From Eledone cirrhosa (lineage: Eukaryota): a stretch of DNA of 64,000 bases. Under the pieces are notes generated by a model. That model had not been told where the DNA came from, ran no database searches, and saw nothing but the letters and a program-made list of their open reading frames with translations. The stretch lies in NCBI GenBank assembly GCA_964016885.1, contig OZ024740.1, forward strand, positions 180,110,001 through 180,174,000, written 5' to 3'. The stretch's first letter is position 1; every line of letters begins with the position of its first letter. Positions 1,621 to 59,704 of the stretch are shown here, piece after piece. A program made the position numbers and the translations under genes.

Positions 1621-3283
1621 ACATACACATGTCCTGGCGGAGAAATGAGGAAATTCGCCATTAACACCCCAGATGTCTACAATCATTAATGGCTGCCTTT
1701 TGGTAAAATTATTCTTTGCATATGACCTAATTGGCAGCAAACGTATCGTCACACACGAAAATATTATGAAAAATGAGAAATATAATCTGAAAACAGGTCC
1801 AGCCAAAGGCGAAGACGACATAGAAACGCGTACACACACACACACACACACATAAATACACACACATACGCAATCAGACACATACACATACACGCACACA
1901 CATATATATATATATATAGATTAGGTATAAACCGACGGTTGTAGCTGCCGTAAAACATGTACTATTCCATCTATATATTAATTTCAACAACGTCATTATT
2001 CCGTGTGTCAGAATACTCGATTATCATTGGTTCATAGGTTTCAAGCGACTCCACCCAACTCAACGACGCCAAATGTAAATTAATATGCATAATGCCAATG
2101 AGGAAGTGAGAGGAGAGAGTAAGAAACAGAGAGGCAAATTGAACGCTGTAACTATTACTATGTGTGCGTGTGTATGTACGTGCGACTATGTTTATGTGTG
2201 TGCGTGCGTGCAGTGTTCCACAGAAAATAAAAGCAATTCAACTTTATCAAACAGTGAACTACAGCGGCGAGTCGCTCAGCCGGGAATGAAGAAACATGGG
2301 CCGAACAGCGCCATCGGAACGCCGAACTTCAGAGGCGAAGACATGCCGCCATGAATGAAGAGGACCTTGCTGAACAACGCCAACGAAACGCTGGAGCCAA
2401 GGAGCGACGGCGTGATGCGATGGTTGAAGACGAACTGGCTGAGCATCATCTTTTATATTAATTATCTATATCTATATCTACATATAATATAAAAGATTGG
2501 AACTTCCATCATCCTTTTGAGAAACGTGGAACAACCACGACTATGCAATAATACACGTTTTACAGTCAGGCAAAAGATGAACCATCTCATAGAGGTTACT
2601 ATTCTAGGCGGGAGCACCTAGAATTCTTTATATACTATGCACAAACGGTACAACGAAGAATCTAGTATATTTGGAAGATTTTTTTACTGTTTTTTGTAAA
2701 GACCACAGACTCGCCTCACACAGTAACCAGAAAAACATCCAATACAGTCATTTTCTCTTTTACCTGTGTTCTCTTATCATCTGTTTACCCGGGCGAAGCT
2801 GGGAACGTCAGTTAGTATATTTATTAATTTCAAGAACGTCAGTATTCCGTGTGTCATAATTCTCGATTATCATTGTTTCATAGGTTTCAAACGATTCCGC
2901 CCACCTCAACGACGCCAAACCGAAATTTATATGCATAATGCCAATCAGGGAGTGAGAGGGGAGTGTGTGAACGCTGTGTTCAATAACTATTAACATGTGT
3001 GCGTGTGTATGTACGTGCGCGTATGTTTATGTGTGCGCGTGCGTGCAGCGTTCCACAGAAAGTAAAAACTATCAACATGTGTGAGTGTGTGCGTGTATAA
3101 GTTTGCGTGCGTGTGCGCGTTTCCATGCGTGCATGTGTGTGGCGTTCCACAATCGCCACACAGTTTATCTGTAAGTGTGCCTGTCTGTCAGTCTAACATA
3201 CACAGAATTGTGAAGGGAGTAAATAGGGACCTTTTTTACATTAACGGACATTTTTTATATTTATTATTGTGATTTTTTGACAA

Positions 3284-6200
3284 TTGCTCGAAATGAATAC
3301 TGACAATAAAGGCAATTCGACTTTATCAGACAGTGAACTACAGCGGCGACGGCGTGCAGCCAGCAATGAAGAAAAACGGGCCCAACAGCACCATCAGAAC
3401 GCCGAACTTCAGAAGCGAAGACGTGCCGCCATGAATGAAGAGGAGTTGGCTGAACAACGCCAACGAAACACTGGAGCCGAGCAGCGACGGCGTGCTGCGA
3501 TGGTTGAAGTTGAAGTGGCTGAGCATCATCAGCACATGGCCGGAATTCAGCAGCAACGGCGTGCGGCGATGGATGAAGAGGAGCTGGCTGAACAGCGCCA
3601 GTGCAATACAGAAGTTCAGAAAATGTGTCGCCAAAGTGTTCCTCATTCCAGTAAAGGGGCTAGAAGGCGAACGAATGATAATAAAAATGGATCTTGGCAA
3701 CCGTTTCATTTTCCGATTGGTGGACGAGCAGAGTGTCCACATTGTGGAGCATTGCTTTGGAGGCACGAAAAGACGTGGACCACAATGTGCTGTCATAAAG
3801 GAGCAGTTCAACTAGAACCCTTGCGAATGCCGGATGATGAGGAGTCACCGCAGTTTAAAATACTAAGTATCTGGGGTGATCAAAGAGACCGAGGTAGATT
3901 ACTGCGCAAATATTCGCGGCAAATTAACAATTCATTAGCTTTAGCATCACAGAGAGTTAGTGAGATGTTTGAGAGTGGAACATGGCAACATAATGTAGTC
4001 ATTCAAGGCCGTTTGTATTATTGTATAGGTAATTTAGAAGTTACCCCATGCCTCGATTCGCTCAAATTTACGTTAACGATCCAGATTATAGTGAATGGGA
4101 GGAGGATATCAGGATGGGTTGGATGAAGTTGCCGGGAAATATAATTGAACTTGCACGGCAAAGGTTAAGTGATTTGATCCGTGATTTGCAATCATGGCTT
4201 AGACAGTGTAATCCTTATGTTATGGATTTCATGTTGGTGGCTGAACTGCAAAATGTTCAGCAGCAAAGATTGGTGATTAAGGCTGATGCAGTGCCAAGGA
4301 ATCAACACGAACGGCGATATAATGCCCCTGAAGGATATCGTGAAGTTGCTGTGTTGATGGACGATAAGCCTGTATCGAGAGATATCGTCCTCAATCGCAG
4401 AGATGGTGGTCTCAAGACTATCAATGAGTCAAATAGGGCATACGGTCCATTGCATTATGTTCTTTTATTCCCAAAAGGTGAAAATGGATGGAACATGTCT
4501 GTTCATTTAGATGATCATGAGAATCAGCATCAACAGGGAGGTGGCAATAGTCACAATAATTCGATTCGCGACTTTTACGCTTCCATTTGAACTAGAGGAA
4601 TCAACAGAGAAATGCACTATTTCAAGCCAGCAGATTGTTCCATGAATACTGTTGTATGGCATTCGCAAAGATCGAAAATCAAAGGCTAAATTATATAGCT
4701 AGAAATCAGCAACATATCAGAGCTGAATTGTATAATAATATACAGGGGATGCGATAACAGCCAATGATGCCAATTACAAGCAAATTGGTCGACACATCTT
4801 TTTGCCATCGTCGTTGATCGGCGGCCCGAGATATATGAACATTCGCTATCAGGATGCAATGGCTATTGTCAGAAAGTTTGGAAAGCCAGATTTATTTATA
4901 ACGGTTACATGCAATCCTGAATGGACTGATATTAAGGATGCACTTTTGCCAGAACAACAGCCAAAGGACCGTCCTGATATTGTGGCAAGGGTATTCAAAG
5001 AATATCTGAAAAGATAATGGATGATGTCGAAAAAGAGGGAATCTTTGGAGGTATAGTTGCTTTTAGAAACGTAATTGAATTCCAAAAAAGAGGATTGCCA
5101 AATGCACGTTTGCTGATCACTTTACATAGAGATTGCAAATTGAGATGTGCTGAGGATGTCGACAGCGTTGTGTGTGCTGAGCTGCCTGAGAATGAGGCAC
5201 TACGCAACTTAGTTGCAAAGTCAATGGTGCACAATCAATGCGGAGCGGCAAATCGGAAAGTGCCTTGCATGAAAAATAGCAAATGCAGTAAGCACTTTCC
5301 GAAATCTTTTGTCACGAACACTTCCTGGAATGATGGGGATGATTATCCCTCATACAGAAGACGGACGCCTGCCCATGGCGGTTTGGTCCAAAATGTAAAC
5401 GATCTACAGGTTACAAATCAATGGGTTGTGCCACACAATCCATATTTTATTATGAAATATCGTTGTCATATTAATGTGGACATTTGTAGCTCAATGGAAG
5501 CTTGCAAATATATATTCAAATATGTTTACAAAGGTCATGATCGGGCAATGATCAATGTCAAGAATGCGGACGCGAACCAAGGAGATGAAGTTGGCAGGTT
5601 CCAGGATGTTCGCTCGATTGGATCTAGCAAAGCTTACTGGAGAGTGTTCGATTTTGATCTCAATGAACGCAAACCCCGCGTTCACAAACTGACGGTTCAC
5701 TTAGAGAATAGGCAAATGGTCTGTTTTCAGGACACTAGAAGAGGTGTTGAAAGAATTGCTAAAGCACCACCTCCTAAGACGGAATTGACTGAGTGGTTAA
5801 AGCATAATAGGGAACATGCTTTGAACCCTTCGCACTATACGTGGGAGAAGAAGGGAAAGAAATGGAATGATAGAAAACAAAAGTTGATATTCATGACTAT
5901 TGGACGGGTTTGTAATGTCCATCCAGCATCTGGTGATGTGTTTTATCTCCGAATTCTGTTGCATAGTGATTTTGCGAGAGGCAAACAGAGCTTCGCTGAT
6001 TTAAAAACAATCAATGGCGTGTAATATGAAACATACCAGGCTGGGTGTCAACATCTGGGACTCCTTCAGAATGACGGTGAATGGAATAACGCCATGGAAG
6101 CTGCAGGAACAACACAGATGCCAGCTCAAATAAGGCAGTTGTTTGTCACGATTCTAGGATTATGCAATCCTGCCGACCCAAGAGAGTTGAACGCCATTGG

Positions 6201-7849
6201 GGAATTATGGCTGATGATTTTAGGCATCATCTTCAGGTCGATGATGAAAATTTGATGAAGGATATTGTTTTGCTCAATATTGAGTAACTGCTTGAGTTCA
6301 TTTGAAACGTTTCAGAGATTTTAATTTGCCAATTCCTGGTGTAGAAATGCGGCAACGTGTCTTAGCATTGAACATGAGATTGCAGCTTAGACGGTTGCCC
6401 CTAGATCGGAGGGAACTATTCCAGATTGATCCACTGGTACATCAACGTATTGTGGATGAACGTATGCCAATGTTGACCCAATCTCAGAGAGAATTGGTCG
6501 ATGGCGTTCTCCACTCGATTTCCACTAATGAGCAACTTTGTGCTTTCAGAGATGCTCCAGGATTCACGGGAAAGACATTCTGTTTCAACACTATGTTATC
6601 GGCAGTCAGAGCTCAGAGGAAGATTGCTCTCCTTGTGGCCACCATTGGGTTCGCTGCTACTTTGCTGAGTGATGGAAGGACCTTCCACTCATGCTTCAAG
6701 GCTCTATTGGCTGCGGATGAGTTGAGTGTCTGTAACATTACAGGACGGAGTGAACTCGCGGGCCTTATACGCAATACGTCTCTGATTATTTGGGACGAGG
6801 CTCCAATGGCACTCATATATTTGCTGGAGGCATTGGACAGCACTCTGAGAGATATCTGCGGTAGTGACCTGCCATTTGGTGGTAAGACTATCGTTCTTGG
6901 TGGCGATTTCAGACAGGTGCTACCAATTGTTAGGAATGCTCAAAGAGCGCAAATTGTCGATGCGTGTCTGAAAAAGTCCCCGTTGTGGTGCCATTTCAGA
7001 GTTTTGCGATTACACGATAATATGCGACTTCGTATGTTCGGGAAAAACGAAGAGGCTCAGACATACGGCCGATTGTTGATGCAGTTGGGAAACGATGAAT
7101 TGCCACACGTTGGTGATAATCAGACTGTAAGAATGCCAGACCATTTGGTCATGCCACTGGACCACCAAGCATTGATTGAGTGGGTGCTCCCTAATTTGAA
7201 TGCTTTTTGGCAGAATATCTCCTGAATATAGGAATGCGTTATTCTAACTCATACGAATGCAACGGTTGGTGAAATAAATTCACAAGTAGCCGGAATGTTT
7301 CCTGGAGAGGAATGGTTGACCGTCAGTGCGGATGCAATGGAGCGTAATCAGCAGAACAATATGGATGTTCCCACTGAGTATCTAAATTCACTTCAAATAC
7401 CCGGATTTCCCCCACATATTTTGAGGTTGAAAAAGGGTATGCCGATTATATTGCTTAGAAATATCAATCATAAAATGGGTCTTTGCAATGGTACCAGATT
7501 GATTGTTGAGAGATTGATTAATGGAAGAGTTTTAGAAGCTAAAGTCCCAGGCAGAGAGGAATCGGTTCTCATTCCGAGGATCATGCAGAGACCGAGTAAA
7601 GATCTGCTGCCATTCATTCGGCAAAGGAGACAGTTTCCCGTCAATTTGGCCTTCTCTATGACTGTCAACAAGGCACAGAGACAGACTTTCAAGCGAGGCG
7701 GCGTCTACGTGAATCATCCAGCATTCCGTCACGAGCAACTGTATGTTGCTGCATCTCGAGTGTGCGATCCTGATAGTATAACATTTGCAATTGATACTAC
7801 TAACAGAGGAACAACCCTGAATATTGTCTATAATGAAGCTTTGAGCTGA
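3284..7849 (+). pseudogene. Helitron RepHel transposase (STPR-like repeats, Zn motif, HUH Rep, PIF1-family helicase), broken by frameshifts and stops
   Basis: ORF pieces 3284-4126, 4048-4590, 4802-5017, 5017-6024, 6302-7225, 7295-7849. Motifs: CPHC...CCHKG, GGPRYM..YQDAMAIVRKFGKPDLFITVTCNPEW, EFQKRGLPNARL (degenerate HUH), YIFKYVYKG, DAPGFTGKTF, IIWDEAPM, GGDFRQVLP, LCNGTRL, QFPVNLAFSMTVNKAQ, QLYVAASRV. Confidence 0.95.
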
Positions 7850-8329
7850 TGTATGCATATATATAATGCTATCAATAAGCGACGTAAATGATTCAGACAT
7901 TGGTGTCCTTTCATCAGTATTGTGAGCTTTGACAGAGTAATCATTTATGTCCAATGTCATTTATTTTCGATAATGAGCAATAAAAACCAACAAGTATTGG
8001 TAGAAATTGCCTTCAAATTTATCGCTTCTGATTATTGGTAATAAACCCTCATCATATTTTGTTGCCTATGGCCGGCCAGGGCTAGAGTAATATTGAAAAA
8101 CGATTCTATTTTCGAATTAGAAGTATCCGCCATTTGGGGTTCAAACCAGGCCACCTCCCCGAGTTGAACTCTGGACAATAACTACTGTCTATTACTCAGT
8201 TTTATTATTATAGCTGACCACTTATAGATAAGCATGTTATCCATATCCATATTAATTTGGCATTTGTATAAACCATTTCAAGTAAATAGGGACCTTTTTT
8301 ACGTTGACGGACATCTTTTATATTAATTA

Positions 8330-8688
8330 TCTATATCTATATATACATATAATATAAAAGATTGGAACTTCCATCATCCTTTTGAGAAACGTCGAACAAC
8401 CACATCTATGCAATGATACACGTTCTACTGCCAGGCAGAATATGTACCATCTCCTAGAGGTCACTATTCTAGGTAGGAGCACCTAGAACTGTTCATATAC
8501 TATGCACAAACCGTACAACGAAGAATCTGGAATATCTGGAAGATTTCTTTTACTGTTTTTTGTATCACACAGACAACACGGACTCGCCTCTTACTGTAAC
8601 CAGACAAACACCCAATACAGTCATTTTCTCTTTTACCTGTCTTCGCTTATCATCTGTTTACCCGGGCGAAGCTGGGTACGTCAGCTAG
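8330..8688 (+). mobile_element. ~355 bp mini-Helitron module forming the 3' end of the array units (also 2465-2815 and 9578-9936)
   Basis: Each copy begins A|TCTATATCTATA and ends with hairpin + CTAG (TTAG in the first copy); the three copies are highly similar. Confidence 0.75.
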
Positions 8689-11194
8689 TCTGTATATTCA
8701 TTTCATCAAACATTATTATTCCGTGTGTCATAATTCTCGATTATCATTGGTTCATAGGTTTCAAACGACTCCGCCCACCTCAACGACGCCAAACTTAAAT
8801 TAATATGCATAATGCCAATGAGGGAGTGAGAGGGGAGAGTAAGAAACAGAGAGGCAAAGTGAACGCTGTACCCTATTACCATGTGTGCGTGTGTATGTAC
8901 GTGCGCGTATGTTTATGTGTGTGTGCGTGCGTACAGCGTTCCACAGAAAGTAAAAGCAATTCTACTTTATCAAACAGTGAACTACAGCGGCGACGGCGCT
9001 CAGCCGGGAATGAAGAAAGACGGGCCGAACAGCGCCATCGGAGCGCTGAACTTCGATTATCATTGGTTCATAGGTTTTGGGGTACGTCAGCTAGTCTATA
9101 TATTAATTTCAAAAATGTCAATATTCCGTGTCATAATTCTCGATTATCATTGGTTCATATGTTTCAAATGACTCCGCCCACCTCAACGCCGCCAAACTTA
9201 AATTAATATGCATAAATCCAATGAGTGAATGAGAGGGGAGAATAAGAAACAGAGAGGCCAAGTGAACGCTGTAACTATTACCATGTGTGCGTGTGTATGT
9301 ACGTATGCGTATGTTTATGTGTGTGCGCGTTCCAGAGAAAGTAAAAGCAGTTCGACCTTATCAAACAGTGAACTACAGCGGCGACGGCGTGCAGCCACGA
9401 ATGAAGAAAAACGGGCCGAACAGCGCCACCGGAACGCCGAACTTAGAGGCGAAACGTGCCGCGATGAATGAAGAGGAGTTAGCTGAACAACGCCAATGAA
9501 ACACTGGAGCCAAGCAGCGACGGCGTGCTGCGATGGTTGAAGACGAATTGGATGAGCATCATCTTTTATATTAATTATCTATATCTATATTTACATATAA
9601 TATAAAAGATTGGAAATTCCATCATCCTTTTGAGAAACGTGGAACAACCACGTCTATGCAATGATACATGTTTTATAGTCAGGCAGAAGATGAACCATCT
9701 CCTAGAGGTCACTATTCTAGATGGGAGCACCTAACATTGTTAATATACGATGCACAAACGGTACAACGAAGAATCTGTTATATCTGTAAGATTTTTCTAC
9801 TCTTTTTTTGTATCACACAGACACCACGGACTCGCCTCATACTGTAACCAGACAAACATCCAATACAGTCATTTTCTCTTTTACCTGTCTTCTCTTATCA
9901 TCTGTTTACCCGGGCGAAGCTGGGTACGGCATCTAGTTTATATAATTCTCAAAAAGAAAACGAAACCATTCATGGTGTGCTGATTAATAAAAAAAAAACA
10001 ATCGATGTTTGCATAGTTCATCCAGTTTTGATACCTGAACATAGATGCACAAATAATTTTGCTAGTTAAAAAATATTCGGATAATCTAACACAAATAAGA
10101 ACACATCCGCACGAACAGCTCGGGTAAAGACCACAGAGCAACTTGATGTTTCATGCTTGCATTTTTCATCTTTAATTGATTATCTAGAAATATGACAAAA
10201 GGTATAAATTCTGAACATTACTTTCATATAAGGTTAACGTTTATTTTAATGGTCTGGGGAATTTTCTTGAAATCCAGCTGATAATTGTGATGGTACTTAT
10301 TGTTCATGCCGTACAGTTTAATATAAATGTTCTGATAGTCTGCAATTATTTCTGCAACGCTGAAATTACATCCTCTGTATCATACTAAATAGGACATGTA
10401 ATCTTGGTTCTGATGTATTCACCGCATCATAAATTCTGGAGAAATGAATGTTTCTCTCTCAATTTACATTCAGGATAATGAAATGCGTAAGTAATATGAC
10501 AATATTGGAATCTACATTGAGAAGGTAAGATCAATCTTCAGATGAATACATGTCATTTCCTGGGGTACCATATATCAAAACGAATAAAATATTGTATCCT
10601 TATGACGAGAAACTTAACTTCATATGATATTGTACATATATGAATAGGAGACTCTAAAATATTGTTCATTTATATCATACTTGCCAGAATAGGGATCAAC
10701 ATTTTTGTAACTTAGAAACTTAAGCTAACATGCAATATTTCATTTTATTTGCATATAACACATTGATTCTTAAATATTCCAAAGAATACTAAAAGAAACA
10801 TAAATATATTTGTTATTGTTCCTGGAAGCAAAATGAACAAATGAGAGCACAATTATTTAAATTCGTTTCAATTCAATTCATTTAGTAGAGTTCTTTATTG
10901 TGGCTTTCAATACTATCTCACCTGGATCTGTCTGATGTTCAAAATTCTGTTAGTGTTGTAAAAAATAATATTGCAATATGTTGCCTTTCGAGATGATTTC
11001 CGGTATCATTACCGTCATCGCCAAATGGATTATCTTTAATGTTAAAGTAATATATAACCCACCAATATATTTGTATTCCTATGGCCATGACCGGAATCAA
11101 TGTTAATTCAAGGACATTTTGGTAACAGGCAGAATTGTTACATTGGACAAAATACCATTCCACATTTTCGAATTATAAGTGCAGACAAGGACCA

Positions 11195-13663: not shown

Positions 13664-14441
13664 CTAGCATTAAAGCCCGGCGTTGCTCGGGGTCATTAAG
13701 TTACCAAAGTTAGGTTGCACCACCCATTTTATGGCAGCACTTTTTTGTCTGCCAGGCACTAGGTGAATGAATTGCAGACCTGGAAGCAGGAACTGCGCCA
13801 GCAGTGACAATTGTAGTTTCGCCTATGGATATTAGCTCTGTGCAAAAAAGTGTTGAAATTTATTGTTTCACAGTACTTGCGCAACACGCGCGTAGACGAT
13901 GCCAGCCGAACAACAGACCTGCGTTGGAGTTGTTCTGCATGGTTGTCTGTGTGTTTTCTAAATTTAAGACAGTAAGGAGGGTTGTGATATGAGGGAGAGT
14001 TAGCTGTTGTTTCTAGCAGGTTTAGTGACCTCATAGAGGATATGTGTTTTCTAAATTTAAGACAGTAGGGAGTGGTATAATATGGGGGAGAGTTAGCTGC
14101 TGTTTCTAGCAGGTTTAGTGACCTCATAGAAGATATGTTTTCTAAATGTAAGACAGTAGGGAGGGGTTAGATATGGGGGAGAGTTAGCTGCTGTTTCTAG
14201 CAGGTTTAGTAACCTCATAGAGGATATGTGTTTTCTAAATTTAAGACAGAAGGAAGTGGTGTGATATGGGGGAGAGTTGGCTGCTGTTTCTAGCAGGTTT
14301 AGTGACCTCATAGAAGATATGTTTTCTAAATTTAAGACAGTAGGGAGGGGTGTGATATGGGGGAGAGTTAGCTGCTGTTTCTAGCAGGTTTAGTGACCTC
14401 ATAGAGGATATTATTGTTTATCATTATCTATAAAAGGCAGA
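13664..14441 (-). mobile_element. Non-autonomous Helitron carrying an internal minisatellite
   Basis: Minus strand: A|TCTGCCTTTTATAG at 14441, then hairpin CCGAGCAACGCCGGG and CTAG|T at 13667-13663. Confidence 0.75.
13953..14410. repeat. Five-copy 91/93 bp minisatellite
   Basis: gttttctaaat recurs at 13953, 14046, 14137, 14230 and 14321 (spacings 93, 91, 93, 91). Confidence 0.9.
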
Positions 14442-15039
14442 TTGTTGTTGTTGAAGTGTGTGTGTGTTTGTATGCGTTTGGAAAAGAGGTTTTAAAAAAG
14501 ATTTATCGCTTGTTGTTGAATAAATGTATCTGTTGCTTTTGAATAATTGTCGTTTCGTATGAAATGTAATAATTGTTTCTACTTTTTTGGCACAAGGCCA
14601 GCAATTACCAGTACATTACTGGTACTTTATGTAATAATAAACGTTCTCTATCTCTCTCACTCTCACTCTCTTCTCTCTCTCTCTCTCTCTCTCTCTTCGG
14701 CAATCACGCACGTTGTCAGATGATATGAGAGAGTAAAACGGACAGTATCACCATCAAGCTTGGAAAGAGAAAGTAGCAGAAAGTATGAGGTTGTATAGAT
14801 TTTGAATGGTAGTGGAAAGAGTTTAGCAGTTTAAATGACAGAGGAACATCGTAAAATATTGAGTTTTATCTATTTTTTGCGTCATTGTGGGTGAAATTGA
14901 AAAAATTAGATGTGCCAAGACGCTATTTCGAATACTGAATTGTAAATTTCAATTGAAGAAATTCTATATCGTAGATTTCTATAAGAAAGGAGCATGACCA
15001 CACACTGAGCTTTATAGATTATGATAAATGCAAATAATG

Positions 15040-15305
15040 AAATTTCATTTCTCAATCTTAGCACGGCTGATACTTAAATGTAAGTATGTATACGTACATA
15101 CATATATGTATACAGACGTACAGTAGTATGTATATACATACATACAATTCGGGCTGTTTGTTTACAAACAAACCGAATTATTATAATAAATGCTCGGTAA
15201 ACCCATACGTACATATATATATATGTGTGCATGTATGTATGTACATACATACTAGTGTACGTCTGTATATATATATATGTATGTACGTATACATGCTTAT
15301 ATATA
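15040..15305. mobile_element. Family X fragment with 5' inversion (homologous to 41917-42820)
   Basis: 15040-15146 matches 41950-42045 and 15147-15303 matches 42670-42815. Confidence 0.7.
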
Positions 15306-15310
15306 TAAAA

Positions 15311-15916
15311 TTATCTCCAAATTATTTTGTTGAGCAAAAATTTGCCAAAACTACTGCTATAGTTCATAGTAATAGTCAGGCTACTGTCTTATTAACACCC
15401 CACTCCTCACTGATTAACCTCGATGTCACGTGATTGATTCTTTTGAATTCGCCACCGACCAAGAAGGCAGTGATTTTTTCAATGTCCTGGAATTTAGTCC
15501 TCGCTTCCTTTTTTCCATCCACTGAATTATTTTTATTTAAGTTCCCTGTGTCCACGCATCGCCTGGGAACTTAGCTGAGAATTGACTTCCTGATGACGAA
15601 AGGTATTCTCCATGTTCCATTCGGGAACCATGTTTATTCCCTTTCAGAAACTAATTAGTTGGAGTGAAATTTTAGTAAGTAAGTTAATTTTTATAATTTT
15701 CTTATTTTACGTCTTTCATATAATTGTTCTGCATCCCCTTCCATTGAACTGCAAAGTTACTAACACAAAACCTGTATATTTGCTAGCATAGGTATGTATC
15801 TGTATATATATGTTGGTAGATATACAAATTCTTTATAATTATCTCCAAATTATTTTGTTGAGTAACAATTTGCCAAAACTACTGCTATAGTTCATAGTAA
15901 TAGTCAGGCTACTGTC
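15311..15916 (+). mobile_element. Retrozyme-like family Y, ~1.15 tandem units (528 bp period)
   Basis: ttatctccaaattattttgttgag recurs at 15311 and 15839. Contains an HHR at 15585-15665. Diverged homolog at 42861-43758 on the minus strand. Confidence 0.75.
15585..15665 (+). ncRNA. Type I hammerhead ribozyme with extended stem II
   Basis: acttc-CTGATGA-cgaaagg...cctttca-GAAA-ctaattag-TT-ggagt. Palindromic stem III, GUU site. Confidence 0.8.
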
Positions 15917-16152
15917 CTTAATTGTAAGTTGCAACATCACAACTTACAATTAAGGACAAAATGAAAACACACACACACATAGAACAAACACCCAACCAGT
16001 TACATATAAATAAACAAATAAATAAACAAATATAAACACACAGAGACACCCATATGTAACACATGCGCAAACTAAGCACACATCACAAACAAAAACAAGA
16101 TGGTGTAGGACAGAACAAAGGAGAGGCACAAACACAAATAAAATAATCCCCG

Positions 16153-16195
16153 GTCACTGAAGAGGTCACCGAATGTGTGACGAAAGAACTTTGAC
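16153..16195 (+). ncRNA. Minimal type I hammerhead in a PLE 3' tail (~15950-16340)
   Basis: gtca-CTGAAGA-g-GTCAC(cgaatgt)GTGAC-GAAA-gaac-TT-tgac. Same stem III and site as the HHR at 62622-62667. Confidence 0.75.
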
Positions 16196-16338
16196 AATAT
16201 ATGAACAATCATCTGGTTGTGGAACCAACCAACCAACCGGAAATTTATAAATTCCTAAATTTATTATAATAAATTGAAGTGAAAGCTTTGGGTGCGTGTG
16301 TTTCATATTGGCAACATGACCCTCCCAAAGTATAACAA

Positions 16339-16405
<67 letters not shown>

Positions 16406-16406
16406 G

Positions 16407-16450
<44 letters not shown>

Positions 16451-16566
16451 TACTCACACTTACACACAAGCTATTGACCAGGTAATAGTTGGTATCAATG
16501 GGTTAAAGACGTCTGTCAAATCAATTAGCGGCGAAGGTAGTATATATATATATATATATTTTGAAC

Positions 16567-30434: not shown

Positions 30435-31142
<708 letters not shown>

Positions 31143-34894: not shown

Positions 34895-35779
34895 AAGTGG
34901 ATAAAAGAAGCGAATGTATAAAACTCGCCTTCATACCTTTAGTGAAACTATTGTGTATTATACAACTTTAAAACCAAATTGTTTGTTACATTATAACTAA
35001 GTGTAGTAGAAACGTAATTGTTTCCCACGCAATGATACAGCTCAATAACTGATTCACACTCACGCGGGTGAAAACTCCTATGTTTATCCATTTATTTTAA
35101 TTTCGTGAACTTTTCAATATCTGTTTTATATGTGCGAACCCATTTCGCTTTTAACATTTTCATCTTCCAATTAATTGAAAATTGTTATTTTTAGTTTAAC
35201 CCTATGAAAATAGCATATATATTTTCAAATGTGTAATTGATTATTTTGTTATTTGACCTTCTATTTAGATTAAGTCAACATCCGCAGCATTGAAATATTA
35301 ACTTGTATTCATATTATCACAAAATGGAAATTTATATCGATTTGACATTAATCTCTTGAGAAATAAAAGAAGAATGTGAGCTTACGTTGAACGTTAGAAG
35401 TGAGAAAACATATATGAACATATTAAAAACTACATGAAATTTTTGAGCATTCATTTATTTTAATCCTTATGCAATAATTTATATAGTCTGACCTAAACAA
35501 AATGCTAGTAAATATGATTTATTGCGTCTTGACATTTTGTTTTTTGTAATTGTTTTCTGTCACGAATAGGGATGTTAGTGCCAAAGGTTTCATGTAGTAT
35601 GTGTGTCAATTAATTATACATATTTGAATCTAAATATCAGTTTGGTTTCCTGGACAGGCCGCCCTGAATGAGACAGTCAGAAACAGCCTTTAAGTGGCTG
35701 GCTTCCCATCGTATATTGTTCTAGCCGGCCTCGATTGTGGTATAATTGTCAGAAGAATTAATATGACACTGTTTATCAC

Positions 35780-36265
35780 ATGGGGCGTATTAAATATTCT
35801 TACAATGATTTTGACACAAGCGACAAATATGGATTATTAACTCGAAATATTATGAGTTATTTTTGCCCATTAAGTAAAAACGGTCTCGATCGGAATTTAG
35901 TTTATGAATGCATAGTTAAAAAAAAAAAAAAGTCTTATAGTTATATTGGTGCAACTTCTGAATTTAAAGAAAGGTGGTATAACCATCGCCACTCGTTTAA
36001 AGGTAAAGATAAAAGATTTAGCACGGCACTCCAAGAATTGATTTGGTCGCTTAAAAATAAAAATATTGAATATTCCCTTTCTTGGCAGAAACTTTCTCAT
36101 GCTTTTCCAAATGAAACTGCATCTATATACATGGGGTGTGATCTCTGTACCCCAGAGATTCTTCACCTCGTTCAAAATAGACAATTAGCTATAAATAAAT
36201 GCTCTGAAATATTTAGCTCCTGTCTTCACAAATTCAGCAAAACGTCTCATAAGGCATTTAGTTAA
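35780..36265 (+). pseudogene. PLE GIY-YIG endonuclease fragment
   Basis: CPL..LVYECIV...SYIGATSEFKERWYNHRHSF...IWSLK...CDLC...SSCLHK, homologous to the C-terminus of 47138-48886. Confidence 0.8.
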
Positions 36266-39698: not shown

Positions 39699-39759
39699 TA
39701 TTGTATTATATATATTTCAAGGGTACCAACATTTTGGTACGCCCTCATCAGATAAAATG
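39699..39759 (-). ncRNA. Type I hammerhead in a PLE tail with 5' inversion (39560-39925)
   Basis: cattttat-CTGATGA-gggcgtacc...ggtaccctt-GAAA-tatata-TA-atacaata; same family as 45858-45923. Confidence 0.65.
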
Positions 39760-40240
39760 CAAAATTTGTTTTATAAATGGGAACATACCCAAGAAACCAG
39801 ACCTTATCCAAACTGAACCTTAACCGATAATTTTATTGGGTATGTCACCATTTATAAAACAATTTTGTATTTTATCTGATGAGTACGTACCAACATTTTG
39901 GTACGTACTCATCAGATAAAGTATTAAAAATGTGGCCGAACACAGGAAAATAAACACCACTAGATTATTGTTTAATTAGTGTATGTGTGATCTAACTATC
40001 TATCTATCTATCTATCTATTTTTCTATCTTTCTGGGATGGACACACGCGTGAAACTTGCTGGATAAGTTCTGCCTAAATTTCTATAGAAATTCTTAACTG
40101 TAAACCTTAATTTTTATATCAATTTGTAGAGGGACTGCCAGGTCAAATTATGATCTGGTCTGTCTCTCAAAATATTCTACGCCTTTAGGCGAAATAGTTC
40201 ACAAAATGCTTTTTGGGGGAAAAGCTAACATTTAAAAAAA

Positions 40241-41916: not shown

Positions 41917-42289
41917 ACCGAAAACGTTAAATGAAAAAGAATGAAACGAAATTTCATTTCTCACTCTTAGTACGGGTGATATTAAATATAAGTACGTACA
42001 TACATATATGTATACAGACGTACAGTAGTATGTATATACATAAATACATGCCCACATATATATATATATGTACGTATGGGTTTACCGAACATTTATTAAA
42101 TGTTCGGTTTCTTTGTAAACAAACAGCGCAAATTACGCCGTACAGTGTTCGGAAATCATCGTTTCCCTTTTGTCCAACACTGACAAAGGAGCGATGAACT
42201 AGTTTCAAGCTTATTAGCTATCGTCAGCATTGTATACCTTCCTTTCAGATGATTGAACGTTTGAAGGTTAATATATGTGTGCGTGTATG

Positions 42290-42350
<61 letters not shown>

Positions 42351-42820
42351 TACGGTACGTCTGTATAGATATATGTATGTACGTACTTATATTTAAGTAT
42401 CAGCAGTACTAAGAGTGAGAAATGAAATTTCGTTTCATTCTTTTCCATCTATCGTTTTCGGTACGCCCGGCCGACTAACTGAATCTATATGCAAATTAGG
42501 CTGCTCAGCCCTTAATATGCATAAGGAAAGTATACACTTTCAAACGTCCAATCATCTGAAAGGAGGGTATACGATGCTGACGATAGGTAATAAGCTTGAA
42601 ACTAGTTCATCGTTCCTTTGTCAGTGTTGAACAAAAGGGCAACGATGTTTGCCAAACAATGTATGACGTAATTCGGGCTGTTTGTTTACAAACGAACCGA
42701 AGATTATAATAAATGTTCGCTAAGCCCATACGTACATATGTATATATGTGTGCATAAATGTATATATATACATACTACTGTACGTATGTATACATATATG
42801 TATGTACGTACTTATATTTA
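41917..42820. mobile_element. Retrozyme-like family X: minus copy 41917-42267 and plus 1.1-unit tandem 42348-42820 (425 bp period)
   Basis: tactac(g/t)gtacgt...cttatattta at 42348 and 42773. The minus copy reads through the junction. HHRs at 42191-42233 (minus) and 42571-42613 (plus). Confidence 0.75.
42571..42613 (+). ncRNA. Minimal type I hammerhead (family X)
   Basis: acgatg-CTGACGA-taggtaataagctt-GAAA-ctag-TT-catcgt with a 6 bp stem I. The inverted copy at 42191-42233 has an AGCT/AGCT stem II. Confidence 0.75.
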
Positions 42821-43049
42821 TATATATAAATATATATCTACATATATATATATATATATATAATTTAATATATCAACTAACATAAGCGCACAGATGCACG
42901 CCTATGCCAGCAAATACACAGGTTATGTCATAGTACCTAGGTGGTTCAATGCAGGAGGATGCAGAACAATAATATAAAAGACGTAAAGTAAGAAAATCTT
43001 TTTCAAAAAATTTTTTTTAAAATTTTTTTACTAACTTACTTAAATTTTC

Positions 43050-43131
43050 ACTCCAACTAATTAGTTTCTGCAATGGGATAAAGACAGTTACGTAATCTAA
43101 CTGTCGAGAATTCATTGCGTCATCAGGGAGT
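43050..43131 (-). ncRNA. Type I hammerhead, extended stem II (family Y)
   Basis: actcc-CTGATGA-cgcaatg...gacagtta(gattacg)taactgtc...cattgca-GAAA-ctaattag-TT-ggagt. Confidence 0.85.
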
Positions 43132-43610
43132 CTATTCTCAGCTAAGTCTCCAGGCAATGCGCGGACACTGGCGGCTCATATAAAAATAATAATAATTCGG
43201 TAGATAGAACAGCTGGCGAGGACTGAATTCTATGTACTGAAATCCTCACTGCTTCTAGTCAAATGGCCGATTCTAAAGAATCAATCACGTGACACAGAGG
43301 CTAGTCAGAAGGAATGGGATGGTAAGATGACTGACGCCTACTAACACCCCAAAAAAAAAATTTTTTTAGAAGTGGTTTTGGCAGGTTTGCTCGACAAATC
43401 AGTGATTTGGAGATAAATATAGATAATTTAATATATCAACTAACATAAGCGCACAGATGCACGCCTATGCCAGCAAATACACAGGTTATGTCATAGTACC
43501 TAGGTGGTTCAATGCAGGAGGATGCAGAACAATAATATAAAAGACGTAAAATAAGAAAATCTTTTTCAAAAAATTTTTTTTTTTAATTTTTTTTACTTAC
43601 TTAAATTTTC

Positions 43611-43692
43611 ACTCCAACTAATTAGTTTCTGAAATGGGATAAAGTCAGTTACGTAATCTAACTGTCGAGAATTCATTGCGTCATCAGGGAGT
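43611..43692 (-). ncRNA. Type I hammerhead (family Y, second tandem copy)
   Basis: As 43050-43131, with two substitutions in the stem II region. Confidence 0.8.
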
Positions 43693-43803
43693 CTATTCTC
43701 AGCTAAGTCTCCAGGCAATGCGCGGACACTGGCGGCTCATATAAAAATAATAATAATAAAGATTTTCTTATTTTACGTCTTTTATATATATATATATATA
43801 TAT

Positions 43804-46054: not shown

Positions 46055-46085
<31 letters not shown>

Positions 46086-46177
46086 ACGAAGGAAAAGTGG
46101 TAAGGAACCAGGTGGACCATAACGCACCAAAGTACTCAATACTTGAGGTAGTAGAGTGGGTAATAGGAACCAGTAAG

Positions 46178-46271
46178 ACCCCGACAGCTGAGCTCAAGCC
46201 GTTTCGACGGCTAATTCTGGACTAAATGAAAATTTATCCTGGTATTTAAATAGCCGATCTTCTCAAGGGGT
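46178..46271 (-). ncRNA. U3:A8 hammerhead in the PLE 3' pLTR
   Basis: Reverse complement of 49878-49971. Confidence 0.7.
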
Positions 46272-47137
46272 AATTCGATATATGGTCAAAGTGATTGTCA
46301 AAAATCAGTAGTAATTCTGTGGTTGCAAATTAGTAGGGGAGATGGTGGCTAAACCTGCCAGTAGGAGAAAGAGGGGAGGGGGTGGAGTAGACCCAATCAA
46401 GCGTTGGTAGTGCCAGCTACAGCTGGGCATGAGGTCAAAGAAGATACAGGGGAGGGGGGGGGGGAGTCGGAACGGTAGGTAGAACAATGGGGGGTAGAAA
46501 TATCTAGGAAAGAAAAAATACTGAGAGAGAAGAAAAGCAAATAAGTGTAAAGAAAAAAGTAAAGTAAATTAAATTCTACGACCTAGGTGTCAGGCTATTG
46601 TTAGGCTAGAATAAAATAAATAAATAAAGAAAGAAGTAAAGAAATAAATAAATAAATAACGAAATAAGTAAAAGAACTAGGTGGGACGGATAGGCAAGGA
46701 CCCTTTTAACAGGTATAAGTACGTAAATGATACGGTGACGGGTCAACAAAAGGGGCCAAAATACTAAAGAGACTACCACGAAATAAACAATAAAGGTTTC
46801 CATCCCGGGCCAGCAACGACCCAGTGCAGCAAAGTGAACTTGTACGAGATAATAATTCTGAGTCCCGAGAAAAATATATATTAATGCTAACTCTAAAGGA
46901 TCTAAAATAAGCTACAAGAAAGTTCGTACGAAATAAAGGTAGAATACGGAGAAATAAATTCAGAATCCACCCCACCCAGAAGAAAAGCGATGCAAGAAAT
47001 ACTGAAACGAAAAAATAAGGCATAAGTGCCACTAAGAAATATAGAGGGCACAGAGAATAGTGGGAGCGGTTGGAAAAAGGGGGCAAGTATCCGGGGTCTA
47101 AGCCAACTGCTATAAAGGGCGGAGTCCGCCAAATCTA

Positions 47138-48980
47138 TCATAGACTAGGGGAGGGGGTGGTGGGGGTACTAAGGCTACATGGGGCCAAAGGGCAGCCTCG
47201 GGTGGGCGAGAAAAGAAGCCGACAAAGGAGAAGAGCTGGGGTAGAAGGACCAAGGAGAGAGGGGGGAAGGAAATAAAGGAAGCGATAAAAGAATACAAAG
47301 AAGATCTTACGTCTTCCTTGGCAAGCAGGGGTTACCCATTGCAAAATCGGCAAGTGGGGTGTTATAGCCCTAGTCCCCCCCCCCCCCGGGTCATTATGGG
47401 GTTTGAGGGCGAGGTAAGTCCTACGCAATCTATGTTTACATGCAGTAACCAGTTCATCTTTCTTGTTTAGGAGTTGGTCCGTGGAAAACAGCATTTGTAA
47501 AGTTTCCTCCGAGCATAAATTGCACGGACGGCGTCCTCCCGTGTAAGAATTGGCTCTGGACAGTAATCTCCAAGTGAGATCATAGGTGATGTTGTTGTCC
47601 TTGAGGTCCCATATGTGGCCCGAAAGTGTAGTGGCGTGACGCCGGGCCGGGTTTCGGAAGGTATGTCTATGTTGGTATAGCCGGGTCTTGAAGTCACATG
47701 CGGTAAGTCCTATATAGGCTTTGTTGGAGGTATCCGTCCTCACGTTGCACTGGTAGATCACATTACGGTCTCTGCATCTATTGTTGAGTGGGCAAATAGA
47801 TCTATCCGGGCAGTTACACCTCCTGGTTGGTCCTCCACTGCTATTTAGGTTATTTCTGCCATCGGGGTTGAGTTTTTTGTTGTTAGAGGAGACGATGTTT
47901 TGTACGAAGTTTGGTGTAGTGCTGTAAGAGAGTTTGATGGTATTTTTGTTAATTATGTTGTGGTAGCGGTGTTGTAATGGGAAGTGTTTTTCAATGAGCC
48001 TAAAGAATAGTTTCCCGATGGGAGTAGTCACCTCTGCGTTGTGGGGAGGATTGAACCATGTTACATTGCGTGAGCGGCGGTGTCTCCTGCTGGTTCCGCT
48101 AATGGGAGCTGGACAGTAGGATATTTCTTCCCGGAAACCACTCCGCTTGAGGGCCTGGTTGTAATAAGGCGCATGTTCATCGAATATCCGCTCATTAGCT
48201 GACAAACGGGATATGCGGAGGGAGATGTTTTTGACCAGGTTGTTTGTGATGTTCCTAGGATGATTTGATCGGCGGTGGATGTAGTGCAGATTGTCATTAG
48301 GTTTCCTGTATGGGTAGTACAGGTCGTTTTCGAGGTCGAGGGTCACGTCCAGGAAGTTTACTCGGGTCAGGGACGTTTGTAGGGTTATTTTAAATCCCCA
48401 GTCGCGGAAGAATCTGATTAATTGTTTCCGGACCCGATCTGTACTACTGGGGTTGTACCCTTTAAGGGTAAGGAGCCCATCATCACGGTACAATCCACCA
48501 CCGAATGCAGGAAACATATCAGTGAGTTTGGCTATTAGGAATAATCCTATAAGATCAGTGACCTCCGCCGAATCCGTGGCGCCCATGCTGACGTCGAAGG
48601 GTGAGTCGGGAAATCTTTTTATCCATTTAGAGTCGTCAAAGAGTAAGACTGTCTTCCTGGCGTGGAGGATGATTTTTCTTTCCTGGTCGGTGATGGGCAC
48701 GAGTGTTTCGGCGAAGTCCAAGGCGACAGTAAGTAGCGGTAAGGTGATTGAAGCATAGTAGCTATCTATGTCGAACTGTATGAATTTAGTTTCTCGTTTA
48801 TCCTCCATATTGCTGAACCAGGAGATTACTTCCTGGGTGTTGATCCATAGGCTAAGTCGGGTGTGTTGCTTGACTTTTGGTATCACGCGGTCTAGGATTT
48901 TTTTGCTGATTCTCCCTATGTCGGACTTCGTTGGGTTAATAAGCCTGATAGAGGGTTTACGGTCAAAATCGGATTTATGG
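47138..48980 (-). CDS. PLE reverse transcriptase + GIY-YIG endonuclease (N-terminally truncated; Naiad-like motifs)
   Basis: Open from HKSDFDRKPSIRLINPTKSDIG through FDIDSYY, SMGATDS, YRDDGL, FLDVTLDL, WFNPP, CNC..CPLNNRC, VIYQC..YIGLT, FKTRLYQH, CNLC, ACKH. Confidence 0.92.
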
Positions 48981-49877
48981 TACCCCCACCACCCCCTCCC
49001 CTAGTCTATGATAGATTTGGCGGACTCCGCCCTTTATAGCAGTTGGCTTAGACCCCGGATACTTGCCCCCTTTTTCCAACCGCTCCCACTATTCTCTGTG
49101 CCCTCTATATTTCTTAGTGGCACTTATGCCTTATTTTTTCGTTTCAGTATTTCTTGCATCGCTTTTCTTCTGGGCGGGGTGGATTCTGAATTTATTTCTC
49201 CGTATTCTACCTTTATTTCGTACGAACTTTCTTGTAGCTTGTTTTAGATCTTTTAGAGTTAGCATTAGTATATTTCTCGGGACTCAGAATTATTATCTCG
49301 TACAAGTTCACTTTGCTGCACTGGGTCGTTGCTGGCCCGGGATGGAAACCTTTATTGTTTATTTCGTGGTAGTCTCTTTAGTATTTTGGCCCCTTTTGTT
49401 GACCCGTCACCGTATCATTTACGTACTTATACCTGTTAAAAGGGTCCTTGCCTATCCGTCCCACCTAGTTCTTTTACTTATTTCGTTATTTATTTATTTA
49501 TTTCTTTACTTCTTTCTTTATTTATTTATTTTATTCTAGCCTAACAATAGCCTGACACCTAGGTCGTAGAATTTAATTTACTTTACTTTTTTCTTTACAC
49601 TTATTTGCTTTTCTTCTCTCTCAGTATTTTTTCTTTCCTAGATATTTCTACCCCCCATTGTTCTACCTACCGTTCCGACTTCCTCCCCCTCCCCCTCCCC
49701 TGTATCTTCTTTGACCTCATGCCCAGCTGTAGCTGGCACTACCAACGCTTGATTGGGTCTACTCCACCCCCTCCCCTCTTTCTCCTACTGGCAGGTTTAG
49801 CCACCATCTCCCCTACTAATTTGCAACCACAGAATTACTACTGATTTTTGACAATCAGTTTGACCATATATGGAATT

Positions 49878-49971
49878 ACCCCTTGAGAAGATCGGCTATT
49901 TAAATACCAGGATAAATTTTCATTTAGTCCAGAATTAGCCGTCGAAACGGCTTGAGCTCAGCTGTCGGGGT
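49878..49971 (+). ncRNA. U3:A8 hammerhead in the inverted pLTR
   Basis: acccc-TTGAGAA-gatcggcta...tagccgtc-GAAA-cggcttgagctcagctg-TC-ggggt; predicted cleavage after 49966. Confidence 0.7.
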
Positions 49972-49981
49972 CTTACTGGTT

Positions 49982-50062
<81 letters not shown>

Positions 50063-57245: not shown

Positions 57246-57927
57246 GTATATATATATACCCACCCACCCGCAATCTCAAGAACGTGAAACTAATAAACCT
57301 TTGTTTGTACTTTCTCTCTGTTTTGTTCCCGTTCCATTTTTCACCTATATATATATATATATATATTAGGATTGGTGCTCTAAAATAGCGATGTATACAT
57401 GAATGTATGTATAGTATACCGTATTTTTAATTAAAAACATTTAGAAGAGCATACGCCAAAAAGAAGTAAGTGATATAGTCACTATTCTAAAACTGATAGC
57501 GTATGGTCTTCTAGATGTTGCTAATTAAACATACTGTATATTGCCAAATATTGTATACATGCAATCATATATATATACATATATATATATCTATAAACAT
57601 CCGTATAGAGTGGACGAGTGAAAATAAAGGTTACTCAGTAGCGAAATATAGATTAAGTAGCCACATAACTTACTATTCTGACTCATGTTGGCAGTAGGCG
57701 TAGTAACCACTCATGGTAAATTTGTGGGTTTACGAAGCTATTTAACACCTATTTGGATTGGATCCCCATTCACTCTGAAGACTTCTTAAGAGCTTTTTGA
57801 TGTTTGCGCTGCTGGGGTTCTATTTTCGATTCTCTCCAGACCAGAGTTTGGTTTACATAGTACCAGAAGCCTGAGTCGCCAGACCTGACCACACACACAC
57901 GCACACACACACACACACACACGCCCA

Positions 57928-57972
<45 letters not shown>

Positions 57973-58003
57973 AATAAACACAACCTTACACACACACACA
58001 TAT

Positions 58004-59704
58004 AGACCTAGAAGAAATAGATCCCGTCGCATTTGTTGGTTTAACCCACCATATAATATGGAGGTGGCCACACCATTAGCTAACATCTTTCTTTCCCTTA
58101 TTACGAAGCATTTTCCCCCTACACATAAATATAGTAAACTTTGTAATAGAAATACTATTAAAATTTCTTACTCTACGACTCCTAACCTTGCACATAACAT
58201 CACAGCTTCAAATTTAGCTAAACTACCTAGCCGTAGGAACACGTGCAACCCTGTAGTTAGTACTAACTGTAATTGTAGGAATCGGGCTGATTGCCCCCTA
58301 TCCGGGAAATGCCTCTCTAGTAACATTGTCTACAAATGTAAGGTTGTAACACCCACGTCCCGTAGGGCCTACACAGGGTTAACCGCCAATAGTTTCAAGC
58401 AGCGTCTTTACATGCATACCCAATCTTTTCGTTACCCTCTAAGAAGGAATATGACGTCACTTTCAGCTTATATCTGGAGTCTAAAAGACAACCACACCCA
58501 ATATAAGTTACACTGGGAGATCCTAGCTAGGGCTAGATCGTATAACGGAAGTAAAAGACCATGTGACCTCTGCGCCGCTGAGGCCCTGGAAATACTCTAC
58601 GCTACAGACCACATCTTAAACAAAAAATCTGAGGCAATTTCGGCTTGTAAACATAAATTGCACAAAACTTTCCTGTATTACAGCCCCACGTTATACCCTA
58701 ACGGATAGCACGATCTATACGTGGATATTTTACGTCTTGATGTGGGAGTTAAGTATATGTTTTGTTTATTCCTTTACTTATTTGCATAGGTAAGTATATA
58801 TTACCCGTATGTTTTGTGAAGGTATGTATACCTTCTCGTACGTATATTTGACTGTTATAGCGTATAATTTTTACATATTCTGGTATTTAGGGTTTGGCTA
58901 TGTGTATACGGGAGTTTTGCGTCCGCGTGAGTGTGCAGGTTCGTACGTATGGTGGGTGTGTGTATATGTGTAGTTCTTGTTTTAGTTGACTTACGTCTCC
59001 GAACATTCGAGTATTTATATGTAGGTATGCGTGTGCGCTTGTTATATACGTATTTAATTACTTATATACGTTTATATAATTATTTATTTATTTGTACACA
59101 AGCATACACACACACACATATTTATATGTGCGTGGTTTTGTATACCCATGGTAGGTTTTGCGTATGCTTTTGTATGTACGTATCTGTTTGCGTGTATGTA
59201 TTTATTTGTTTCTATTACTTCTGTATTGTATTTATTTACTTTGTTCTTAACTCTGTAGCGGAGATTCTTTTGGTCTCCTAGTTAGAATTTTAGTCTACGA
59301 TTTCTGCTATACCATTTACGTGGTTTTGTCTTTGCGTGCTATTGTTCTCCACGCTCCACATACGACTCATTATCTTCGTTTTTTCGTTCATTGCCAGAGA
59401 ACGTCTCTATGCACCACCTAAGAGAACATTAGTCTACGACCTCTTTTATACCATAAACGTGGTTTTGTCTTTGCGCGTAATTGTTTTTCACCGCTCCTAT
59501 TAATGACGTATTATTCGTTTTTTCCCGTTCTTTGCCAGGGAACGTTACCACGAACCAAAGTATCGTATTCCTGTCTTCCTCAGGTTGCAACGTTTTTTGA
59601 AATATCCAGTGCTGCGTTTACAGATTGACTTTGTTAGTTTCAGAGGATCTCCCGTTAAGGGTGAAAGCAGCGATTCTTTGCTTAAACTTTAATCTGTTAT
59701 TTTA

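Follow-up and report, generated by a model that had tools for sequence, protein, structure and literature searches.

The described systems closest to the repeat reported here are metazoan non-LTR retrozymes, EN+ Penelope-like elements (PLEs) and non-autonomous Chlamys PLEs. Mobilization of animal retrozymes by PLEs was previously argued from co-occurrence and phylogeny; in the accessible text of Li, Clavereau and Pollet 2026 (10.64898/2026.07.22.740005), metazoan retrozymes are derived from PLE pLTRs by phylogeny. For PLEs themselves, the accessible part of PMC11167929 reports on a lizard PLE protein that, once purified, cleaves AT-rich DNA on both strands and begins reverse transcription internally, at two sites that bound the tail. 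Optionally, one inverted pLTR of a PLE bears a tail of about 31 bp (PMC3846280 and PMC8557442, accessible portions), and a stem III favored in the dimer is described for animal and PLE hammerheads (PMC4209133, accessible portion).

The window analyzed here, a 64,000-nt stretch of Eledone cirrhosa DNA, contains two copies of a repeat that we call family Y, one at 15311 and one at 43 kb. We read family Y as a non-autonomous, PLE-mobilized non-LTR retrozyme copied into TA microsatellites, with a probability of about 0.8. The features of the two copies and of the elements next to them are as follows (m, monomer coordinate).

15036..15300, no strand assigned: family X, another hammerhead repeat, as a two-armed fragment; the TA tract that ends it is where Y lies
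15309..15838, plus: family Y monomer, subfamily A, 528-bp period, m1 = 15311; its 5' end adjoins a short TA tract
15424..15443, plus: 20-nt block with CACGTG, identical across all 12 subfamily clusters
15585..15665, plus: type I hammerhead motif (from sequence, covariation and energies)
15585-89/15661-65, plus: hammerhead stem I
15590-96 and 15647-50, plus: hammerhead core, CTGATGA and GAAA
15598-603/15640-45, plus: hammerhead stem II
15611-18/15624-32, plus: hammerhead inner hairpin
15649-60, plus: hammerhead stem III, a 12-nt palindrome
15660 (m350), plus: predicted cut after GUU
15722, plus: site S1 (m412), the 3' end in 41/103 genomic segments, read through in this copy
15723..15837, plus: 115-nt tail from S1 to S2 (S2 = m527, the 3' end in 53/103 segments)
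15774-15825, plus: 25-pair hairpin inside the tail
15839..15916, plus: second, partial Y unit (m1-78), severed at the junction with family Z
15913..15958, no strand assigned: fold-back palindrome with which the family Z fragment begins on its 5' side; Y shares the initial 4 bases
15931..16339, plus: 3' end of the autonomous PLE family Z, with the last codons of a GIY-YIG-type ORF, the 3' UTR and a minimal hammerhead motif at 16157
42854..43757, minus: 43-kb copy, subfamily B, long arm ending at S2, period about 563 bp
43758..43787, plus: 43-kb copy, short inverted arm ending at S1, then (AT)n(AG)n

The earlier note had described the 15311 copy as 1.15 units of a 528-bp period, and both values were confirmed: positions 15311-15388 and 15839-15916 are identical at 76 of 78 bases, while 19 other offsets gave 13-30 matches. 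The unbroken match of the repeat begins at 15309 and the copy is 608 nt long. It is 71-75% identical to the 43-kb copy, which lies on the opposite strand, falls into a different subfamily and forms a head-to-head pair of one S1 arm and one S2 arm. Both copies sit in a TA tract at the end of a family X copy, and no ORF of 150 aa overlaps the unique sequence of either one in the 64-kb window. Family X at 41917-42845 is two-armed and carries a short type I hammerhead motif (42577, plus; 42227, minus) with a palindromic stem III.

The window contains further repeats. A frameshifted Helitron-like Rep/helicase region (3281-7849; PIF1 PF05970, E=3.5e-61) has repeated termini at 1970-3530 and 8312-9944, and a 91-93 bp tandem unit occurs in five copies with 90% matches at 13950-14411. 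Two more PLE-like endonuclease fragments and the end of a LINE-like ORF (minus strand) lie at 57875-58708, 35762-36265 and 30435-31025. Additional CTGATGA motifs with a common upstream context were found at 39751-39900 and 45866, those at 39751 (minus) and 39876 (plus) overlapping as an inverted pair; they possibly belong to another hammerhead family. A PLE-like element at 46085-49986 has 1-kb inverted arms, one of them with 77 extra nt, and a 620-aa open frame (47138-49000, minus) with RT and GIY-YIG-like motifs. A simple core scan of its ends revealed no hammerhead. Family Z (sampled loci L132-L150) is abundant, with 2,482 first-look candidates; its first end is preceded, at a distance of 158 nt, by a minimal hammerhead motif, and there is a related copy near 62661 (minus). 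We take the ORFs of family Z and of the 46-50 kb element to be those of PLEs, given the RT and GIY-YIG motifs in their translations, and a Pfam, PDB and homolog search returned no name for these nearby PLE-like ORFs.

At the genome level, a core 25-mer of family Y has 8,625 exact occurrences in 3.0 Gb (reversed control 0), a figure that counts motif occurrences and not insertions. The first 100 core matches form 65 clusters, of which 60 were retrieved in chromosome order and one was dropped as a duplicate. The resulting 59 loci were picked for holding the core, so that at least one arm of each spans m335-359. Clustering of 90 full units from this set and from top-hit loci gave 12 clusters, 8-29% apart, and family Y has at least 12 subfamilies. 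It is low in GC (35-37%) and its arrays are short. As in non-LTR retrozymes, its monomers are tandem and non-coding, carry a type I hammerhead each and are dispersed at high copy number.

Our results showed that family Y has two fixed 3' ends, 115 nt apart. With S1 defined as m404-416 and S2 as m512-m8, the 103 segments of the 59 loci end at S1 in 41 cases, at S2 in 53 and elsewhere in 9, and 5' ends are scattered in 98/103. All 41 S1 ends and 48 of the 53 S2 ends are followed by (TA)n (89/94 canonical ends). The arms form 41 head-to-head pairs, among which we found 34 S1+S2, no S1+S1 and no S2+S2, the other 7 having a non-canonical end (p=1e-10). Most arm junctions (32/41) fall between a 5-base overlap and a 1-base gap. 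A motif-based recount of 55 top-hit loci gave S1+S2 in 18 of 19 pairs and one S1+S1, with 36 loci lacking a scored pair; over both samplings the one-of-each rule applies to 52/53 pairs. The longest internal TA run of the monomer (m493-498) is the 3' end of 0/103 segments, which argues that the fixed ends are not mere microhomology. Contigs from two of three public runs, all of one sample that is possibly the source individual, exit at 15722 into (TA)n; these contigs do not bear on starts or expression. The earlier note had taken the 15311 copy to be circularly permuted and had named shared fixed termini as the refuting outcome. Termini are fixed for 3' ends, with 94/103 at two sites, and random circular permutation is not supported.

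The 15311 copy is atypical for family Y, with a 5' truncation that abuts a TA tract and a 3' end interrupted by a fragment of an autonomous PLE. Neither end is a native 3' end: the left one is the truncation, and the right one (15916) is a junction, via the fold-back, with the 3' part of the ORF-bearing family Z. The Z fragment (409 nt) stops at the first of Z's own end sites, and (TA)n follows at 16342-16452. Divergence from the nearest sampled relatives is about equal for the two parts (Y, 4.2%; Z, 5.4%). The copy would be a one-armed, 5'-truncated insertion with a 3' end set by family Z, either by a later insertion of Z at the flanking TA tract that deleted the true end of Y, or by an enzyme that left Z RNA and went on copying on Y RNA. 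Sampled locus L073 holds a second junction of this kind: a two-armed Y insertion (L073:1500-3078), bounded on both outer sides by (TA)n, in which the right arm continues into family Z for about 890 nt. As this would be an S2+S2 insertion, later insertion with deletion fits better than a template switch. We also considered Z as the mobilizer of Y on the strength of these junctions; they leave this unproven, since L073 favors later insertion and other families also cut Y. The start and end points of the 15311 copy do differ from those of the 43-kb copy, as had been noted earlier in favor of a circular or multimeric template, but they are set by truncation and by the second element and so say nothing about a circle. 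Only 5' ends vary across family Y, as 5' truncation gives with any template, so differing end points lend no support to circular permutation.

Family Y bears the marks of PLE mobilization, namely two 3' ends bounding a tail, a tail at one end of the inverted arms, an AT-rich or microsatellite target and variable 5' truncation. According to our model, a PLE protein would nick both strands of a TA tract, and each nick would prime reverse transcription on Y RNA, one at S1 and the other at S2. The two cDNAs would stop at random points and would then be joined. The template RNA would be longer than one monomer, either an uncut multimer or a circle, and hammerhead cleavage would require the dimer, formed through the palindromic stem III. 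Family Z shares the two-end design (6/7 pairs, 58-nt tail), and so does the 46-50 kb element, with its 77 extra nt on one arm. The S1+S1 pair among the Y top hits and one such pair in family Z tell against the model. A linked RT plus GIY-YIG ORF, as an autonomous PLE would have, was absent from Y: a profile search of 131 Y loci, out of several thousand in the genome, found a PLE ORF upstream on the same strand in none, and a PLE ORF fragment somewhere in 32. Y and Z have no real similarity, and no autonomous PLE with Y-like ends was found among the 131 loci.

The hammerhead of family Y contains the type I elements (CUGANGA, GAAA and NUH with stems I, II and III), and its core is nearly invariant in 44 distinct copies. 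The core CTGATGA and the stem III sequence GAAACTAATTAGTTGGAGTGAAA are identical between the two window copies, in agreement with the earlier note. Beyond its 6 bp, stem II continues into a 7x7 internal loop and an 8-pair hairpin, and at its base there is one extra base on each side, C after CUGAUGA and A before GAAA, which form a C.A pair. No Rfam hammerhead model matched at the gathering score or at E<=10, and only low-complexity miRNA models appeared, below threshold; the missing match is likely owed to the long stem II insertion. By computed energies, the stem III hairpin of a monomer stands at +1.5 kcal/mol and the palindrome duplex at -9.0, so that stem III is favorable only as a duplex and the dimer form is predicted. 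Shuffles fold as well as the isolated hammerhead region (z=-0.23), in whose minimum-energy fold stems I and III are missing. Folded as a circle, the plus strand exceeds shuffles in stability (z -6.1 and -4.4), and the minus strand gave z values of -2.5 and -1.9 (25 shuffles each). The 5' ends are not piled up at the predicted cut (1/103 at m351), which indicates that cut linear monomers are not the usual template. Family Y is likely a self-cutting RNA repeat, with cleavage predicted from the motif. As a guess, the conserved 20-nt block could be a promoter element.

We then analyzed the pairing of the RNA helices. In an alignment of 44 distinct copies, compared with shuffles and slid controls, hammerhead pairing is found in 94.4% of cells, the shuffles giving 86.4% and the slid controls 31-45%; the count of pairs and the pair type do not exceed shuffles, and of the five shuffle measures two were not significant. 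Stem II has two pairs, and the inner hairpin four, with changes on both sides, making six in the hammerhead. The tail hairpin (25 pairs, just before S2) is 91.6% paired in 41 copies. In a tree-aware test on 17 cluster rows, same-branch double changes numbered 3 in stem II (p=0.006), transversion pairs included, 3 in the inner hairpin (p=0.07) and 2 in the tail (p=0.09), making 8 versus 2.35 expected for the three helices together (p=0.0008). Single changes leave the tail hairpin paired in 18/28 cases versus 10.5 expected, via G-U pairs, and show no pairing excess in stem II or the inner hairpin. No trace of A-to-I editing as a source of the G-U pairs was seen (A>G 4.2 versus T>C 4.5 per 1000, p=0.64). 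Selection on the RNA fold, which the earlier note had proposed, is supported by these data, from few independent events. Its comparison of stem II, GAAAGG/CCTTTC versus GCAATG/CATTGC, holds as two double changes, but the stems are perfect in only one 43-kb unit (43126); the second (43687) breaks one stem II pair and one inner-hairpin pair. Pairing of the inner hairpin is likewise kept, but the hairpin was not replaced, as it is a homologous helix with four doubly changed pairs and a one-base bulge in the 15311 copy.

These pairing data bear on the reading of family Y as a DNA-level satellite or MITE in which the hammerhead-like motif would be fortuitous and covariation would reflect shared descent only. 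The two non-significant shuffle measures, the few double changes (8 events on a 17-leaf tree) and the lack of an Rfam match would suit such a repeat. The same-branch excess and its stem II transversion pairs speak against it, as do the single changes that keep the tail hairpin paired by G-U pairs, which exist on one strand only, and the one-sided truncation, which points to reverse transcription; we find it very improbable. Insertion of a circularly permuted cDNA from random starts can be virtually dismissed. It would account for the scatter of 5' ends and for the different monomer positions at which the two window copies start and end, but 3' ends cluster at two sites, every pair with both ends canonical is S1+S2 (34/34), and the 15311 ends come from truncation and the Z junction. 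A further alternative is that family Y is the pseudo-LTR of an autonomous PLE with a rare or lost body, and that its copies are ordinary 5'-truncated PLE insertions. The two-end design is the same as in family Z, the extra base before a 6-bp stem II and the palindromic stem III are PLE hammerhead traits (PMC4209133, accessible portion), and retrozymes have been proposed to arise from pLTRs (accessible text of 10.64898/2026.07.22.740005). We nevertheless judge this unlikely: S2 runs directly into the next monomer at 119 internal junctions, none of the 131 loci has the ORF upstream, and the ORF-less form has been kept by at least 12 subfamilies up to 29% apart.

Another alternative keeps PLE mobilization and concerns the template, which would be a covalently closed monomer circle formed by hammerhead cleavage and ligation and copied round and round. 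Copying from a template longer than one monomer, as the earlier note had proposed, is supported, since 48/103 segments cross the monomer junction, 41/103 are over 530 nt and one reaches 3.8 units. Adjacent units share variants absent from other sampled loci in 25/70 pairs, and only 3/71 pairs, in an alignment-free count, hold two haplotypes known from other loci. A first count had assigned adjacent units to different templates in 15/64 pairs; this fell to 4/64 under strict filters, mostly at homopolymer edges. The stability of the plus-strand circular fold also favors a circle, as does the lack of a 5'-end excess at the cut site, since copying of a linear cut monomer would halt there. Circular forms of retrozymes accumulate in mussel, coral and axolotl (PMC7229834, accessible text). 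However, the same observations would all be expected from a homogeneous genomic multimer that is transcribed and left uncut, and one arm (locus L095) joins two different tail variants. In the PLE assay, moreover, the main template was RNA that had not been processed, and mutation of the hammerhead left insertion normal (PMC11167929, accessible part). Divergence between opposite arms and between adjacent units (2.4% versus 1.7%) did not differ significantly (23 loci, p=0.16). We place the circle a little short of even odds.

Some S2 ends carry an additional run. In subfamilies with a CUCU template, (CT)3-24 stands between S2 and the TA tract at 12/14 ends, whereas the frequency is 3/39 with AUCU, 0/42 with CUUU and 0/8 for unclassified S2 ends; no such run occurs at S1 ends in the 59 loci. 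The runs were seen at the S2 ends of L044, L045, L048, L050, L074, L094, L097, L105, L124 and others. They could be written by stutter on a dinucleotide template at the start of copying, as in the related telomerase. In a fuller scheme, a hammerhead RNA circle would be copied by a Penelope enzyme dimer that starts once each at S1 and S2, positioned by the tail hairpin, and whose stutter writes new (CT)n and probably (TA)n; we regard this scheme as doubtful. CT runs beside AT tracts elsewhere in the sampled loci are also mostly of at least three units (52, versus 6 with two units), so slippage after insertion fits the runs as well as enzyme stutter does. A literature search over main texts, mostly of open-access papers, found no report of stutter by a PLE enzyme.

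Compared with known systems, family Y resembles the metazoan non-LTR retrozymes in its tandem monomers, which are non-coding, low in GC and equipped with a single type I hammerhead (Cervera and de la Pena 2020, PMC7229834), and in numbering thousands of copies alongside PLEs in the genome (PMC7229834; 10.64898/2026.07.22.740005), as far as the accessible texts go. Its monomer is longer, 528-563 nt versus about 170-400 nt in the accessible text of PMC7229834, a range that is descriptive and not mechanistic. Its stem II, extended by the loop and hairpin, and its short arrays also set it apart from the retrozymes described there. In contrast to the circles of the mussel, coral and axolotl retrozymes, a circular form of family Y RNA is putative. 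Two fixed ends and paired inverted arms are a feature of family Y that the accessible texts of PMC7229834 and 10.64898/2026.07.22.740005 do not describe for metazoan retrozymes; the word "tail" is absent from the text of Li, Clavereau and Pollet, and a literature search over main texts, mostly of open-access papers, found no report of fixed paired ends in a retrozyme.

With EN+ PLEs, family Y shares head-to-head inverted arms, a tail at one end only, 5' truncation, microhomology joins, fold-back palindromes and AT-rich targets (PMC3846280, PMC8557442, PMC11167929 and PMC4209133, in their accessible portions). The extra base before stem II and the palindromic stem III are likewise found in EN+ PLE hammerheads (PMC4209133, same portion). 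Family Y differs from the EN+ PLEs of these texts in having no ORF, in the extra A before GAAA with the C.A pair at the base of stem II, and in its tail, which contains a conserved 25-pair hairpin and at 115 nt is about three times the published 30-40 bp. Non-autonomous PLEs of the Chlamys clade such as MRC1 are, like Y, ORF-less derivatives with head-to-tail multicopy insertions; this clade is described as lacking canonical hammerheads, and its non-autonomous members resemble their autonomous partner at the 3' end (PMC8557442, accessible text). Unlike them, family Y had no 3'-end partner in our comparison with Z and the 131 loci.

The class to which family Y belongs, the retrozyme-type repeat, is already known; the new element is the footprint of two-site PLE initiation on such a repeat. 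Here the repeat itself carries that footprint, in thousands of copies. The end pattern constrains the unsolved mechanism of PLE insertion, and family Y offers the existing in vitro assay a short RNA that lacks an ORF and whose start sites are mapped. In family Y the one-of-each rule has almost no exceptions, whereas for published EN+ PLEs the accessible descriptions speak of "often" or "optionally".
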